Shown here: positions 4,047 to 64,000 of the stretch, piece by piece | Numbering within the stretch: position 1 is the stretch's first letter | Layout: every line of letters begins with the position of its first letter | From: TPA_inf: Saccharomyces | Taxonomy: Eukaryota | Reading direction: 5' to 3' | Length of the DNA: 64,000 bases | Assembly: GCA_000146045.2 (NCBI GenBank) | Contig: BK006938.2 | Location: forward strand, 320,001 to 384,000 | Translations under genes and position numbers: made by a program | Notes under the pieces: model-generated | Told to the model about the DNA's origin: nothing | Seen by the model: the letters and a program-made list of their open reading frames with translations, nothing else | Databases searched by the model: none

Positions 4047-6155
<2,109 letters not shown>

Positions 6156-9835: not shown

Positions 9836-10447
9836 CTAATTTATTTCTTCTTGCAACGATTCCGACTTCTCCTTTAAACGTGCAATTTCGTCATCGATGT
9901 CCTGAATTTTCTTCAATAGTTCAAAATTTTTCTCATCGCCGTGGTCATCCTTGGAAGCGCCGGATTGAGCAGCAGCTTCGGCAGTAACAGAGTCGTTCTT
10001 CTTGACATCGCTGGAGGCTACTGGAGGCGATGCTCTGTATATGTCTTTCATGGTTAAAAGTTCTATGACTAGCCCAAAAGTCCTAACGACGACAAAGGTC
10101 AAAAACAAAGTTATACCTGTCAAATACATATTCCTTTGGGCAAAGAATTTCCTAGAAAGAACCTCAATTCTATCTTGAGCGATTATAGCGCCATTATTTT
10201 GAGAGGCGCTACTTAACTGCAGCTCTTTGTCGATGCTGTACACTCTGTTGATACAATCGATGAAAAGCAAAAGAATGAACCCAAGTACACACTTGATCGC
10301 AACTTGCACTGTGGAGGATTTGAACGGCTTTAATAACAGTAAGGTGAGAGGCCTACGGTATCTAGAAGGGATTGGTAGGGCTAGAATGGAGAACATGAAA
10401 ATCTCCACCACTAGAATGGCAAAAACCAAGGTGTAATATAATGACAT
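9836..10447 (-). CDS. YET3: ER membrane protein, BAP31 homolog (203 aa)
   Basis: 203-aa ORF with three N-terminal hydrophobic segments and a C-terminal coiled coil ending KKIQDIDDEIARLKEKSESLQEEIN. BAP31-like architecture; synteny YDL072C. Confidence 0.85.
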   Translation of the reverse strand: MSLYYTLVFAILVVEIFMFSILALPIPSRYRRPLTLLLLKPFKSSTVQVAIKCVLGFILLLFIDCINRVYSIDKELQLSSASQNNGAIIAQDRIEVLSRKFFAQRNMYLTGITLFLTFVVVRTFGLVIELLTMKDIYRASPPVASSDVKKNDSVTAEAAAQSGASKDDHGDEKNFELLKKIQDIDDEIARLKEKSESLQEEIN

Positions 10448-18271: not shown

Positions 18272-20134
18272 CTATTGGTTAGTAGAATTTTCATTCATTT
18301 TGTAGTGAATGAAACTATCCAACGTAGTAAAGCAATCATGGCATCTTTCTTTTAGTTCGGGATTTTTGTTTTTATCAACCATTTTGAATTGCTGCCTCAA
18401 ATTTGGTACAACTTGGTCTTTTAGAATAGATAAAAATCCACCCCTTACAAATATTGGTTCATTATAGTCGTAAGAGGCATCCCCGTAAATTTGGAAAAGC
18501 GAATTTGTCATTTCTATCAAAATTTCAGGGCGAACATTCAACTGTGTTAAAGTTTGTATGAAGAACTGCCCAATCTCCTTATTTGCATCAATTTGTCCCT
18601 GAATCATAGCATATGTGCTTAGTACATTAATACATTTTTGTTGTAACTCAAGGTCATTATTATTTTGGAACTCTTCAATAATTCCCCTAGCGAATCCTGA
18701 ATTGTTCAGCATTTGGACATTGATCAATGCTCGATTCTCACTTTCAAACGCTCCATCAGGAAAGATGAGTTTCAGAAGCGCCCAAATACAGCCCATTCTT
18801 CCTATTTTAATACTCAAATCATCTTGGCTGTCCAACTGTGTAACATAACTCCATAAGGTGGTTAACAACTCTCCAGAGAGCTCTGTTAGAGATAGAGACA
18901 CAAAGAGCCAGATCAGATTGTTCCATCCGATCAATATTCGCGAGGTGAAGGTATCTTTCAAAATCATGAAAACGTGAGGTAAGAAATTTGTTAAGGTATT
19001 GATTAGCTCCTCTGGAATTGCTACTTCCTGTGATTCTGGTGATTCATATTTGGATGCAACTATCTCAATGATTGCGGTGATAAGATCAATTGCTATTTCA
19101 ATGCTTTGCAATTTTATCATGGATTCGTTACGTTTCGCATTGTAATCCTTGATCTTAGTTATAACCTTACTGCTTTCATCTTTACTAGTAGCAGGTCCAA
19201 TTTCTACAGGGTTATTAATGTCATTAACTAACTGTACTGGATCAATGTTATTAATGGAATGACATACAGAGTGGATCATTTTGTTACATTGATCATAAGT
19301 TATTTTCATGTCAAGGAATTGGCAATGGATACCTTCAATTAGAACTTTTGTTAATTCATTAGCTTGTGGATGTAAAGCCGGAGATAGCCCATTTAAGAAC
19401 TGTGATAGAAGTTCATTGTTGGAAACATGATCAATAAATTCAAATGATTCGGAACTCAAATCATAAATGAGATCAAGAGTGGTATTGAACAGATTAATTG
19501 GCAGTTTCTCGACACCATATTTTAATAGCTGTGAAATGACCTGAAAAATTTCATTTATTTTACTTTCCGTTAATATCTCATTAAGAATATCGTCGGATCC
19601 ATTAGACAGAGCCACCACTAACGACAGTAAGTTATCGGCAAAATCGAATAACAACCTTTTAGATTCTATTTTGGATTTTCCTGCAGGTTTTAGCTGCGGT
19701 TGCTGTTCTGCTGCTTGCAAAGCGGATAACGATTCAACAATCCTGCCAAAATTACTTGTTATACTTGTCCATATATCAGATCTCCAAAGGTAGATTGACA
19801 CATCATAACCTTCTTCCAAAGACAAGTTCCTTAATAAGCCGAACGACTCCACAACTATGTCCGAATTAGAATCGTTCAGCAATTTATTCAAAATGATAGG
19901 AACTAATTTCTCTTTCAGTAAAAGTTGTCTCATATGTGCATCCTCACAAAGAACACTGATGGAACTCAAAGCAATACTTCTATCATTAGGCACCACACTT
20001 GACAAATTCTGCAATAGCGGCTGGAGTTTTTTATTAACGACGTTGGTATCTTTATTATTGTCATTTGACCCAGCTTTGCGTAGTGGATTTAATCGAGACG
20101 AAGATGCTCTTGATCTTTTCTTTGATCTGCCCAT
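18272..20134 (-). CDS. SYO1: Import adaptor/chaperone for ribosomal proteins Rpl5 and Rpl11; ARM/HEAT-repeat protein (620 aa from MGRSKKRSR; ORF extends 46 codons further to 20272)
   Basis: The 666-aa ORF has an internal Met immediately followed by a basic NLS-like stretch ([20 protein letters not shown]). I recall Syo1 as 620 aa. The cat at 20132..20134 was verified. Synteny YDL063C. Confidence 0.85.
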
Positions 20135-20285
20135 TCTTTTCTGCCCTAAAAAGTCGATTTCTGCGTCCTTGTACAAACTCGAAAATCTGATCGAAAGTAC
20201 TTGGAATCCAGTAAGAATAATGGGGGCGTTGCTACGAAGATTTAATTTTACAATACATAGACCTTTAAACAATGGTAGATAAATG

Positions 20286-20320
20286 GATGAGATGAGATGA
20301 GATGAGATGAGATGAGATGA
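20286..20320. repeat. Pentanucleotide microsatellite (GATGA)7
   Basis: Seven direct copies of GATGA, read directly, lie about 150 bp upstream of the SYO1 ATG. Confidence 0.95.
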
Positions 20321-20329
20321 AAAATTTTC
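20318..20329. promoter_or_regulatory. RRPE-like element TGAAAAATTTTC abutting the (GATGA)n tract in the SYO1 promoter
   Basis: Matches the ribosome-biogenesis RRPE consensus (TGAAAAATTTT) and is seen in sequence. Confidence 0.5.
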
Positions 20330-20627
20330 TGAATAAGAGAACTACTCGTTCTAAATGATTATTGTACATTTTGCATAGAAAAATGGCAATAAACAGGGCA
20401 GTACTATTTCATCATCATCACTAAACATTAGTTGGCAAACTTATTAAGCCAACAGTACTTGTGACTAGAATTTTTTATTATATCGCCAATATTTAATGAT
20501 AAACATAATATAGTAATACCAAAAATAATTATGATAACTTATACAAAAGAAGTGGAAAGAAAAGGAAAGAAGTAATCAAAGTAACTCAAAAAAGGTTAAT
20601 GATTACGATGTTACAATCGCTCTTGAC

Positions 20628-20798
20628 TTATCTGTACTTGTGGAAACCAATGTCGTTAGCCTTTTCTCTGAAACATTGACGACAGATGTTTAAGTCGTAC
20701 TTTCTGACCAAACCAGTGTGGGAGGAGCAGACACGACATTGACGGGAACCTTTACCGAATCTTCTTGGGTGGGAGAACCAAACGTTTTCGTGAGCCAT
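20628..20798 (-). CDS. RPS29B: Ribosomal protein S29 (uS14), 56 aa
   Basis: The minus-strand translation [56 protein letters not shown] was read directly. It is too short for the ORF track. Start and stop were verified. Confidence 0.9.
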
Positions 20799-21487
20799 TT
20801 TGTATATATTCTATAACCAATAAGTTTTCAAAATTGAATAGAAAAATGTTAGTATTATAATTTTTGCAGTTTTTATGTTTTCCAGGAGTTCCATGGACGT
20901 GTACAATAGAATTTTTCGACTATCGAAGTTAAAAGGAAATAAATATAAGCTTATGCTATGGCTCATTGTATTTGACATAATTTGAAGCTTTGTTGATGTT
21001 TGATGCTTGTTGCTACATTCAATAAACACATCGTCTTATTCCACCATGGGGCCACCAGAAAGGCTCCCCCCTACTGCTAGCCACAGATATTTTCCTCGAA
21101 TTTTCAATTCTTTTAGTTGTAAATTTTAGTTACAAATCCAAATCAGCGCAGATACTTTCCTGCTGTTCCTTCATTCTGCATACACGTCCCTTGTCTCTTC
21201 AATCCGCGTTTCCACATACATTTAGCTATAGTTTCTTTCAAAGAATTTCTCAAACTACTAATCCCAATACCTAATAACCACTTCTTGTACTGACGGTTAT
21301 ACCTTTAAGACTTGACGCTTTCCCAGGCAAAATGTAACATTTTCCACCGCGCTGTTCGTACAACGCGAGAAGATCTTTATAAAGAGTACCCAGATGTTCC
21401 CCCCAAGTGAAATAAATAGGCCTACTTAGGACTGGGTGTTAAAATGTACGGATGGAAAAGTAGACTCGATATTCAATTACAGCTAAG

Positions 21488-21515
21488 AAAAATTTTCAGT
21501 TCTGCTCATCTCATC
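21488..21515 (+). promoter_or_regulatory. RRPE (GAAAAATTTTC, 21488..21497) plus PAC-like element (GCTCATCTCATC, 21504..21515) about 110-130 bp upstream of the TSR1 ATG
   Basis: Motifs seen in sequence. TSR1 is a 40S biogenesis factor, and Ribi-regulon promoters typically pair RRPE with PAC (GCGATGAG / CTCATCGC). Confidence 0.5.
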
Positions 21516-21600: not shown

Positions 21601-23985
<2,385 letters not shown>

Positions 23986-43583: not shown

Positions 43584-43951
43584 TATTTTTTTGCTCGAAT
43601 TCACTGACGGAGGGAAACCACTAAACTTCTCTATTGAAGAATTCCCCCTTCACCTTAAACCCTTCCTAATATAAGTATTTTGAACACCATACCATATTCT
43701 CAACAAAACAAAGGAAGCATAATTGATATCATCATTCACGAGATCCATCTCGTGACCGTGAAAAAATTTTCGTCTTCGTCTTAGTGTAATGTGTTCAGCC
43801 CAACCTCATCGCAATATCTCAAGATTTTTGAATTACAACCAAATCAAAAGCACAGAGTCGCATCTCATCGCTATGATGTATTTTTTTCTTTTTCCAAAAA
43901 ATGGGTTCTATTTGGTTCTACTGGAACTAAAGTAGCATCTGCAAAGAAGTA

Positions 43952-44779
43952 ATGTCTGAAAAACCACAACAAGAGGAGCAAGAGAAACCACAATCAAGAC
44001 GTAATTCATTTGCTGTGATTGAATTTACTCCAGAAGTCTTGGACAGATGTTTAAAGCAAGTGGAATTCTACTTTTCTGAATTCAACTTTCCATATGACAG
44101 GTTCTTGCGCACAACAGCGGAAAAAAACGATGGATGGGTCCCCATCAGCACCATCGCCACATTCAACCGTATGAAGAAATATAGACCAGTGGATAAGGTT
44201 ATCGAAGCACTACGTAGTTCTGAAATTTTGGAAGTATCTGCTGATGGAGAGAACGTCAAGAGACGTGTTCCTTTGGACCTAACTGCTGCCAGAAATGCCA
44301 GAATTGAGCAAAACCAACGGACTTTGGCTGTAATGAATTTCCCACATGAGGACGTTGAAGCTTCCCAAATTCCTGAATTGCAGGAGAACTTGGAAGCCTT
44401 TTTCAAAAAATTAGGTGAAATCAACCAAGTGCGTTTGAGAAGAGATCACAGAAACAAGAAATTTAATGGTACGGTCTTGGTGGAATTTAAGACAATTCCA
44501 GAATGTGAAGCTTTTTTGAAATCGTATTCCAATGACGATGAGTCCAACGAAATTTTGTCATATGAAGGTAAGAAACTGAGTGTTTTGACGAAAAAACAGT
44601 TTGATTTACAGAGAGAGGCCTCGAAGTCCAAAAACTTCAGCGGTAGATCAAGATCCTTTAACGGCCATAAGAAGAAAAACTTGCCTAAATTCCCCAAAAA
44701 TAAGAAGAAAAACGGCAAGGAAGAGTCAAAAGAGGACTCTTCTGCCATTGCCGATGACGATGAGGAGCACAAGGAGTGA
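43952..44779 (+). CDS. LHP1: La protein homolog (La motif plus RRM, basic C-terminal tail), 275 aa
   Basis: La-motif-like N-terminus ([18 protein letters not shown]...) followed by an RRM and a KK-rich tail. Size and synteny match YDL051W. Confidence 0.92.
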
Positions 44780-61984: not shown

Positions 61985-64000
61985 CTAAATGAAAGCTAGA
62001 GGAAGAGCGGCAGCGAGCCACACCAATTTTCCTACTGCTTCAATGTTTGCGCTGCCTTCCATGATTAATGAAATGCTGGCAGATGATGTAATGGCTCCTG
62101 TTGATACAGCAGCAATGGAATGCTTTGATGTGATAAATGCGTTAGTAGTGGTGGTCGTGAAGGAATTTGTATAATGAATGGCACTGGATTGACTAGAATA
62201 ATCTTTAGTTGAGGTACCAGAAACACTTTCTAGAGAGGCAGCTGCAGAAATATTGTCCTCAATACTGTGATTCATTACGGAAGCAGTTGATTGAACGTTA
62301 CTTATAGTAGACGTTGATGCAGGAGAAGTCATAAATGCAGATTGTTTGGTGATGGTAGTGTCTTTGGGACCCGAGTAATTTGGGTTCCCAACCTCAGACT
62401 GAATGTTAATGTTTGAAGTTACTAGTGTTGTATGGCGAGTCGAGTCAGTAACTCTACTGACAATATCGGTGACGCTTGCGTGAGCTGATGCATAAGTTCT
62501 ATCTAATGTGATTGGATGAGCTGAGGAAGATGAGCCGACTAAACCATTTTCACTGGCTAGAGTCGTTGGGTCTGCTGAAGTTATGCTAGGATATGAAGAT
62601 TTAGTTGATTGGAATGCGTCAACTACAGAAACAGAACTTTGGGTCTTCGAATCATTGCTGCTAACTGGCATATTAGGCTTGATTATACTTGTTGCGCTTG
62701 ACCTACTCGAGGAAGCCGAATCAACTGGGGTTAAAGTTACAATCGAAGAACTTGAAGTGGCCGAAATTCCTTGCTGTCTAGAAAGGCTTAGACTTTCCGA
62801 CGCAATTGGAATGCCCGTGGAAGTTGATCCGGTCGAAGCTGTTGGATATACTGGGCTATTCGAGACAGCGAAAGTGCTTGGGTCTACTTGAGATCTTTGA
62901 ATGGATGAGACGCTCAAATCAGCTGAACCAGTTGAGGAAACCATATCAGTTAGACTAGATGATACTGTTTGGGTATCTTGGCTGGTTGAAGTGGTTGAAA
63001 CCCTTAGAATGATTGTGTCAGAGAAAGTAGCTAGATCTGTTGAAGTAGTTGGACCACTTGGTCTGGTTGAATAAACTGAGGTTGAACTGACAATAAAACT
63101 GGTTGGTTCAGATGAAGTTGAACTAACTACAGAACTAGCTGGATCAATTGAGGCGCTACTGATGATAGTAGTTGCACCGCTTGAACTAACGATGGAGCTA
63201 ACTGGATCAATTGAAGTAGTTTGAGCCGCTAAAGTAGCTGAACCGTTTGAATTAGCAGAAATAGTCACAGTGCTTGAGCTAGTTGGGTAAGATGAAGTTA
63301 AACTGACAACAGAACTAGCCGGATCAACTGGAGCGGAACTGACTACAGAACTAGTTGGATCAACTGAAGTAGTTTGAACGGTCGAGGTAGTTGAGTCAGC
63401 TGAAGTAGTTGGGTCTGCTGAAGTTGAACTGATAACAGAAGTGGTTGGGTCAACTGAAGTAGCAACGTCACTTGAGCTAGTTTGATCAACTGAGGTTGAA
63501 ATGACTACAGAAGTAGTTGGGTCAACTAAAGTAGTCACAGCGCTTGAACTAGTTGGATCTGCTGAAGTAGCCACGTCACTTGAGCTAGTTGGATCTGTTG
63601 ATGTGGTTACCTCGTCAGAGCTTCTTGTACGATACATACCAGCAACACTTGATGAGGCATGTGGACCAACTGTTGTAGTAGACTCAATTAAAGATGTAGA
63701 GTCCGTGGAAGTGGAAATCACGACAGAGATATTTAGACTTGTTGAAGTAGTAATATCGTTTGAACTGACGAGAGAAGTAGTTGGTTCAATTGAAGTGGTT
63801 TGAACGGTTGAAGTAATCACATCGCTCGAGCTAGTTGGGTCAATTGAAGTGGAACTAACTGCAAAAGTAGTGGAATTGGCCAAAGTGGAATTGCCGATGT
63901 TGTTACTTGGACCAGCTGAAGTGGTTTGAACGGTCGAGGTAGTTGAGTCAGCTGAAGTAGTTGGGTCTGCTGAAGTTGAACTGATAACAGAAGTAGTTGG
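61985..64000 (-). CDS. PRM7: Pheromone-regulated Ser/Thr-rich mucin-like protein with C-terminal hydrophobic tail; 5'-partial, since the reading frame stays open to the window end
   Basis: Minus-strand ORF composed of degenerate ~15-aa S/T-rich repeats (…DPTSSSDVATSADPTSSS…) ending in the hydrophobic LVWLAAALPLAFI. Translating 64000..63884 gives PTTSVISSTSADPTTSADSTTSTVQTTSAGPSNNIGNST with no stop. The start shown in the ORF track is a TTG, not a real initiator. Position corresponds to YDL039C. Confidence 0.8.
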   Translation of the reverse strand, partial: PTTSVISSTSADPTTSADSTTSTVQTTSAGPSNNIGNSTLANSTTFAVSSTSIDPTSSSDVITSTVQTTSIEPTTSLVSSNDITTSTSLNISVVISTSTDSTSLIESTTTVGPHASSSVAGMYRTRSSDEVTTSTDPTSSSDVATSADPTSSSAVTTLVDPTTSVVISTSVDQTSSSDVATSVDPTTSVISSTSADPTTSADSTTSTVQTTSVDPTSSVVSSAPVDPASSVVSLTSSYPTSSSTVTISANSNGSATLAAQTTSIDPVSSIVSSSGATTIISSASIDPASSVVSSTSSEPTSFIVSSTSVYSTRPSGPTTSTDLATFSDTIILRVSTTSTSQDTQTVSSSLTDMVSSTGSADLSVSSIQRSQVDPSTFAVSNSPVYPTASTGSTSTGIPIASESLSLSRQQGISATSSSSIVTLTPVDSASSSRSSATSIIKPNMPVSSNDSKTQSSVSVVDAFQSTKSSYPSITSADPTTLASENGLVGSSSSAHPITLDRTYASAHASVTDIVSRVTDSTRHTTLVTSNINIQSEVGNPNYSGPKDTTITKQSAFMTSPASTSTISNVQSTASVMNHSIEDNISAAASLESVSGTSTKDYSSQSSAIHYTNSFTTTTTNAFITSKHSIAAVSTGAITSSASISLIMEGSANIEAVGKLVWLAAALPLAFI

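Follow-up and report, generated by a model that had tools for sequence, protein, structure and literature searches.

The promoter of SYO1 (YDL063C) contains a pentanucleotide microsatellite, (GATGA)7, that runs into an RRPE. This locus, which lies in the 64-kb stretch of Saccharomyces cerevisiae DNA analysed here as a whole (the window), raises the question whether the repeat acts as an array of PAC sites, whether all of its units contribute to this function, and whether its length matters. We put at roughly 0.85 the probability that the element is the RiBi cassette of SYO1, in which a distal RRPE is joined to a gene-proximal homotypic PAC array that is written as a pentanucleotide microsatellite.

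Sequence of the repeat and of the adjoining RRPE

The repeat is located at 20286-20320 and is detected by TRF as a perfect period-5 array (7.0 copies, 100% matches, score 70). Direct reading of 20281-20331 gives AAATG(GATGA)7AAAATTTTCTG, with the PAC orientation on the plus strand, antisense to SYO1. The first-pass annotation had described (GATGA)7 fused to an RRPE, in agreement with this reading; the sequence string that it quoted is one unit short of this (six instead of 7) and is absent from the window. The GC content of the array is 40%. When a 20-mer of the repeat is searched for with up to two mismatches, it is found at a single locus in 64 kb, and 0 matches are obtained in 100 dinucleotide-preserving shuffles.

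The array contains six GATGAG cores (20286-20316). GATGAG occurs 45 times in the 64-kb window, as compared to 29.8 times expected, and between 18764 and 21505 it does not occur outside the array. GATGAG is the Dot6/Tod6 consensus according to PMC13084002 and PMC3612091, and the PAC consensus GCGATGAGMT and the RRPE consensus TGAAAAWTTTY are taken from PMC5416754. A scripted motif scan detects five overlapping GAGATGAGAT sites on the plus strand at 20289-20318, with a spacing of 5 bp. Each of these registers matches the 10-bp PAC consensus at 9 of 10 positions, the sole difference being C2 to A, and no register of the array gives a 10/10 match. The registers also match G.GATGAG.T, which we take to be a looser form of PAC. 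Thus, the earlier proposal of an array of PAC cores is right as to the cores, but the term 'half-sites' is wrong, because the five 9/10 matches are full-length. No affinity measurement for GAGATGAGAT was found in the literature. With a core every 5 bp, simultaneous occupancy is probably limited to about every second site, or roughly three in all.

The RRPE, TGAAAAATTTT, is detected by the motif scan on the plus strand at 20318-20328. It matches TGAAAAWTTTY exactly, so that its earlier description as near-consensus understates the match, and it overlaps the array by 3 bp, its TGA being provided by the last repeat unit. Exact RRPEs are observed twice in 64 kb (0.65 expected), and 14 of 100 shuffles reach 2. 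An exact RRPE alone in an AT-rich 64-kb window is therefore not significant, and the case rests on the repeat and on the pairing of RRPE and PAC. No further PAC or RRPE match with one mismatch or fewer is present in 20100-20640. An RRPE is a site for Stb3. The RRPE of SYO1 is also similar to gAAAATTTTc, the motif of Sfp1 in vitro, which is mentioned in PMC13254600. No gene-level binding of Stb3 or Sfp1 at this RRPE was found in the literature searched.

Position of the array in the SYO1 promoter

In the orientation of SYO1, the RRPE (from about -195) is followed by the repeat (-186 to -152), 151 bases and the ATG, as expected from the 150-190 bp upstream of the ATG given in the first-pass annotation. 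The 151 bp that separate the array from the ATG (20135-20285, minus strand), which are presumed to represent the core promoter and 5' leader, are poorly conserved, with 0.05-0.35 of the alignment columns invariant in five species, and contain no PAC or RRPE match at one mismatch or fewer. The coding sequence at 18272-20134 on the minus strand specifies 620 aa and a stop codon; its product matches Pfam TPR_SYO1 and is identical to Syo1p of S288C ('Synchronized import protein 1'). SYO1/YDL063C is the regulated gene, as had been annotated. The array thus lies in the proximal promoter of a gene that is classed as RiBi and 'PAC cluster' (PMC11983098, PMC13084002). An ORF of 141 aa at 19857-20282 on the plus strand, which is antisense over the 5' end of SYO1 and stops 3 bp before the repeat, is treated as non-coding. 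The SYO1 promoter is bordered upstream by the 3' end of the minus-strand gene RPS29B (20628-20798), beyond which is TSR1 (21619-23985, plus strand).

The repeat is intergenic and is located downstream of RPS29B, which has a highly conserved 3' flank. This arrangement would accord with a role unrelated to PAC: the repeat could belong to the terminator or 3' end of RPS29B, act as an origin of replication, form a structured RNA or bind a different factor. Such a role is extremely improbable. The repeat lies about 310 bp past the RPS29B stop codon, and the conserved block of the 3' flank ends near 20474; the RPS29B 3' end is unlikely to be the role of the repeat, because this block stops about 150 bp short of it. 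The ARS consensus is absent from the interval, a search of Rfam gives no match at E ≤ 1, ATG does not occur on the sense strand of the (GATGA)7 repeat, and the genetics indicate Dot6/Tod6. The region at 20474-20550, which follows closely on the RPS29B stop codon, shows 75-95% invariance in five Saccharomyces species, far above the neighbouring intergenic DNA, and presumably represents the RPS29B 3' UTR and polyadenylation region.

Binding of Dot6 and repression of SYO1

During growth, TORC1/Sch9 and PKA hold Dot6 and Tod6 inactive. Dephosphorylated Dot6 and Tod6 bind PAC and recruit the Rpd3L deacetylase. To judge from published experiments, these Myb/SANT repressors probably occupy the SYO1 promoter upon starvation or stress and cause nearly all of its repression. 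The YDL063c promoter was selected by Freckleton et al. (2009) on the ground that it "contains 5 PAC sites" (PMC2659770). These five sites are the (GATGA)7 repeat, because the only GATGAG of the promoter are those of the array, which contains exactly five GAGATGAG. When examined by ChIP-qPCR in carbon-starved cells, Dot6-TAP is enriched at YDL063c 12-30-fold over ACT1 (PMC2659770), in line with the Dot6 occupancy considered in the first-pass annotation. The amplicons are shorter than 100 bp and span all PAC motifs (PMC2659770), so that the PAC array and the RRPE, or the number of filled sites, are not separable in this signal. The repression of YDL063c on PKA inhibition is weakened at least 3-fold in dot6Δ, as cited in PMC2659770. 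Neither Tod6 occupancy nor footprint-resolution data at the SYO1 array were found in the literature.

The repression of SYO1 depends on Dot6 and Tod6, as had been supposed. At 20-30 min after NaCl, the mean log2 change of YDL063C is -5.50 in the wild-type strain, -5.39 in tod6Δ, -3.74 in dot6Δ and -0.67 in dot6Δ tod6Δ (source data of Fig EV3 of PMC13084002, EMBO J 2026). Thus, SYO1 is repressed by salt approximately 45-fold by RNA-seq, and this repression is nearly gone in the absence of both repressors. The RNAPII log2 change of YDL063C, which is listed as a RiBi gene in row 47 as sorted of Table S4 of PMC11983098 (NAR 2025), is -4.16, as compared to -4.07 for TSR1.

The PAC test oligonucleotide of Wang et al. 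(2004), GGGATGAGATGAGATGAGAT, is 20 bp long and does not exhibit enhancer activity in a reporter assay (PMC406390). This result fits a repressor site, the assay having covered enhancer activity. GGGATGAGATGAGATGAGAT is identical to 20284-20303 of the window at 19 of 20 positions. A derivation of this oligonucleotide from SYO1 is not claimed; the text of PMC406390 names no source promoter.

Because the multi-PAC character of this promoter and its binding of Dot6 are in the literature, the array counts as already known. The first-pass annotation is correct in its core interpretation, which is already established, but the novelty that it implied is lost, since the multi-PAC promoter was noted in 2009 (PMC2659770). 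The array itself adds nothing new to RiBi regulation, YDL063c having been the multi-PAC example for Dot6 ChIP in that year. It is a real, functional and ordinary member of the PAC-RRPE class, unusual only as a microsatellite. New are the descriptive details, namely its genus-wide conservation, its length polymorphism and its likely derivation from a single PAC. No report of a mutation of the SYO1 array itself was found in the literature searched, and the 2025 yeast STR paper contains nothing on the SYO1 repeat.

Length and conservation of the array in Saccharomyces

Contigs encoding Syo1 or Rps29b were taken from public assemblies. All nine S. cerevisiae assemblies that share the reference Syo1 protein contain 7 units. 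Ten more S. cerevisiae places, which were reached through RPS29B and de-duplicated by their neighbouring proteins, contain 7 units (two places), 6 units (six places) or 4 units (two places). The 4-unit allele is present in two independent assemblies, GCA_949124545.1 and GCA_000975675.2. GCA_947369855.1, which was reached through a Syo1 variant named HN1 by NCBI, contains 6 units. The S. cerevisiae alleles are therefore those of 4, 6 and 7 units (20 assemblies).

The array contains 5 units followed by TCAT in S. paradoxus, 6 units followed by CCATC in S. mikatae, 5 units followed by TCAC in S. uvarum, and 8 units, the second of which is TCAGC, in S. kudriavzevii IFO 1802. S. kudriavzevii-like contigs from two sequencing runs contain 6 units with the same TCAGC interruption. 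Thus, the unit number varies between isolates and between species, as the first-pass annotation had suggested, and ranges from 5 to 8 across the species. An array of fewer than 4 units is not present in any of the sequences sampled, which cover the 20 S. cerevisiae assemblies, four other species and the S. kudriavzevii-like contigs from two runs. The 8 units of IFO 1802 (L014, 2308-2360) and the 6 units of the S. kudriavzevii-like Logan contigs ERR10748822 and ERR10749158 (L018, 189-230) share the interruption, indicating that the length changed downstream of a fixed interruption.

All Saccharomyces sequences that were retrieved share an identical junction between AAAATTTT and TCATC. When the promoters of five Saccharomyces species are aligned, 20-column windows over the RRPE and the repeat are 0.95 invariant, as compared to 0.05-0.35 in the rest of the promoter. 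The RRPE and the repeat are the most conserved block of the SYO1 promoter in these five species. This invariance overstates the positional conservation, because repeat columns align trivially; what is really conserved is the presence of at least 4 nearly pure units everywhere sampled. As an internal control, a (TGA)4 tract at about 20409-20424 is specific to S. cerevisiae, the other four species having either no such tract or a degenerate one. Because this tract has no counterpart in the relatives, simple repeats are not kept in this region by default.

Origin of the array

The PAC at the array position is kept in S. paradoxus, S. mikatae, S. kudriavzevii and S. uvarum, and the outgroups contain a canonical PAC or 2-3 units. 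Hence, the orthologous position is PAC-like in related species; the alternative of a non-PAC ancestral sequence, which the first-pass annotation had raised, does not apply. Outside the genus, the SYO1 promoter has an ordinary module of RRPE and PAC. In the SYO1 promoter of N. castellii, AAAAAATTTTCA is followed after 5 bp by GCGATGAGCT, with the PAC at -117. In Torulaspora globosa, TGAAAAATTAT and AGCTCATCGC are separated by 13 bp (PAC at -83), and in Lachancea lanzarotensis, AAAAATTT and AGCTCATCGC are separated by 7 bp (PAC at -114). In Nakaseomyces bracarensis, TGAAAAATTTA is followed after 5 bp by CATCTCATCTCATCG, which consists of 2.8 units ending in the canonical CG (PAC at -130).

Because the outgroups have one canonical PAC or 2-3 units beside an RRPE, expansion of a single PAC is the most likely origin of the array, as far as can be judged from these sequences. 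Expansion of a PAC by slippage, which had been proposed in the first-pass annotation, fits this distribution. On the most parsimonious reading, a two-unit PAC beside the RRPE expanded by slippage in the Saccharomyces ancestor until it abutted the RRPE, and the (GATGA)2 already inside the extended PAC motif GCGATGAGATGAGCT would have been the source of this expansion. Selection may then hold the array at 4 units or more, with its length drifting between 4 and 8 units, whereas slippage alone can also keep a repeat pure.

Number of PAC sites and depth of repression

The window contains two ordinary cassettes. In the TSR1 promoter, 21486-21515 reads AGAAAAATTTTCAGTTCTGCTCATCTCATC, in which 8 bp separate the RRPE from a two-unit PAC (on the minus strand, GATGAGATGAGC). 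This cassette lies about 105-135 bp ahead of the start codon of TSR1. This RRPE is accompanied by AGCTCATCTCATC(A/G)C with exactly two units in S. cerevisiae, S. paradoxus, S. mikatae, S. kudriavzevii and S. uvarum; in S. kudriavzevii the PAC reads AGCTCATCTCATCGC. Because the TSR1 site is constant at two units, the PAC motif is stable at TSR1 while it is expanded at SYO1. In the LHP1 promoter (43759-43871), an RRPE-like TGAAAAAATTT is accompanied by canonical PACs (CTCATCGC) at 43805-43812 and 43864-43871. The downstream ORF of 275 aa at 43952-44779 is LHP1/YDL051W by its position and by the gene name in the dataset. The LHP1 promoter is an ordinary RiBi cassette and a useful comparator.

The mean log2 fold changes after NaCl (PMC13084002) were compared with the number of PAC sites, which was taken from Freckleton et al. 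for SYO1, MRD1 and YTM1 and from this window for LHP1 and TSR1. SYO1, with 5 sites, is repressed by -5.50 in the wild-type strain and by -3.74 in dot6Δ. The corresponding values are -5.21 and -2.64 for MRD1 (4 sites), -4.74 and -2.02 for YTM1 (3 sites), -2.88 and -1.56 for TSR1 (2 overlapping sites), and -2.44 and -1.15 for LHP1 (2 sites). The repression in the wild-type strain tracks the PAC count across these five hand-picked genes, and the residual repression in dot6Δ does likewise, except that it is greater for TSR1 than for LHP1. This result is suggestive of deeper repression with more PAC sites. However, the loss of RNAPII at TSR1, which has two overlapping cores, nearly equals that at SYO1. 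Overlapping registers would be expected to raise the local occupancy or avidity, and a higher occupancy could place SYO1 among the most deeply repressed RiBi genes and make it unusually well repressed by Tod6 alone. The trend fits such a relationship, in which occupancy rises with the number of registers and Tod6 by itself is enough. Among about 60 Dot6/Tod6-dependent genes, SYO1 has the largest mean repression in the wild-type strain (next RRS1, -5.35) and clearly the strongest residual repression in dot6Δ (next MRD1, -2.64, the others reaching about -2.3 at most), and these extremes hold for that sample only, which is a portion of the 489 Dot6/Tod6-affected genes.

It is possible, if somewhat unlikely, that only one or two RRPE-adjacent units act as PAC and that the other units are neutral products of slippage. 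The SYO1 promoters of the outgroups get by with one PAC, and TSR1 is stably kept at two units and is still Dot6/Tod6-dependent. The array length is free to vary between 4 and 8 units within and between species, and a similar repression is reached by other RiBi genes: RRS1, NOC2, SSF1 and BRX1, the PAC counts of which are not part of the comparison, are repressed almost like SYO1 (-5.2 to -5.35). However, units without a function would hardly be expected to leave no sampled lineage below 4 units, nor to carry a single point interruption (TCAGC in S. kudriavzevii) between flanks that are 65-95% variable. The extreme residual repression of SYO1 in dot6Δ among the approximately 60 genes and the parallel between repression depth and PAC count across five genes also argue against neutrality.

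Under the preferred reading of the repeat as a PAC array, the array length (4, 6 or 7 units) is a candidate dial for the depth and robustness of the Dot6/Tod6 shut-off, although a doubtful one. If it is such a dial, a longer array would, for example, keep SYO1 repressed when one paralogue is limiting, and natural variation in the repeat would set how much of the Rpl5/Rpl11 chaperone is supplied, with selection imposing a floor of about 4 units. It is very unlikely that the length is, beyond this, an adaptive 'tuning knob', in which the candidate effect of length on the strength of SYO1 repression is exploited and particular lengths are favoured by niche. The coexistence of 4, 6 and 7 units in S. 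cerevisiae and of 6 and 8 units in S. kudriavzevii-like genomes would be consistent with it, as would the order of repression in the wild-type strain, SYO1 (5) > MRD1 (4) > YTM1 (3) > LHP1 and TSR1 (2). STRs can directly alter the affinity and on-rates of transcription factors (bioRxiv 10.1101/2022.05.24.493321). However, the five genes behind the trend were picked by hand and have many other differences, and the range of lengths is narrow. The array is of modest value as a clean natural case of a transcription factor site that has turned into a microsatellite, with retention as long as the genus and length variation within a species. It is a convenient locus for asking whether the copy number of overlapping sites alters the depth of repression, and whether it compensates when one of the two paralogous repressors is missing.

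Comparison with known promoter elements

The SYO1 cassette shares its motifs, the order of RRPE and then PAC, the promoter zone and the target class with the PAC-RRPE module of RiBi promoters, ordinary examples of which are present in the same window at TSR1 and LHP1. The RRPE-PAC module has a median spacing of 12 bp and a median position of -118 (PMC3612091). In the SYO1 cassette, in contrast, the spacing is zero, with a 3-bp overlap, and the one or two separate sites of an ordinary module are replaced by a perfect pentanucleotide repeat that offers 5-6 overlapping registers; position 2 is A and not C as in the canonical PAC. The extended PAC motif is written GCGATGAGATGAG(CT) and contains two GATGA units (10.1101/2025.09.19.677475). 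This is exactly the form of the TSR1 site, whereas the SYO1 array comprises 4-8 units and no longer has the GC and CT that flank the canonical motif.

Variable promoter repeats of yeast, which Vinces et al. (2009) discussed in terms of 'transcriptional evolvability', are reportedly mostly AT-rich and act by nucleosome exclusion. The SYO1 array is likewise polymorphic in unit number among natural isolates. It differs from these repeats in being an array of transcription factor sites, in its 40% GC and in its conservation across the genus. Among STRs that bind transcription factors, many overlapping registers would be expected to raise the occupancy and on-rate (Horton et al., bioRxiv 10.1101/2022.05.24.493321). 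The repeats of that work flank a bHLH consensus site, whereas the SYO1 repeat, as read from its sequence, itself consists of near-consensus sites.

Other matches and repeats in the window

GCGATGAGAAAAATTTT, a canonical PAC fused to an RRPE-like run, is located at 9923-9939 on the minus strand. It lies outside any promoter, within the 3' part of a minus-strand ORF of 203 aa (9836-10447), and may have arisen by chance or be functional. GCGATGAG occurs on the minus strand at 4675-4682 and 5847-5854, inside a minus-strand ORF of 700 aa (4047-6149); these coding matches are probably incidental. Long imperfect tandem repeats with periods of 18, 36 and 72 bp are present at 63348-63595 in a minus-strand ORF (61985-63883), which suggests that they represent a repetitive protein domain.
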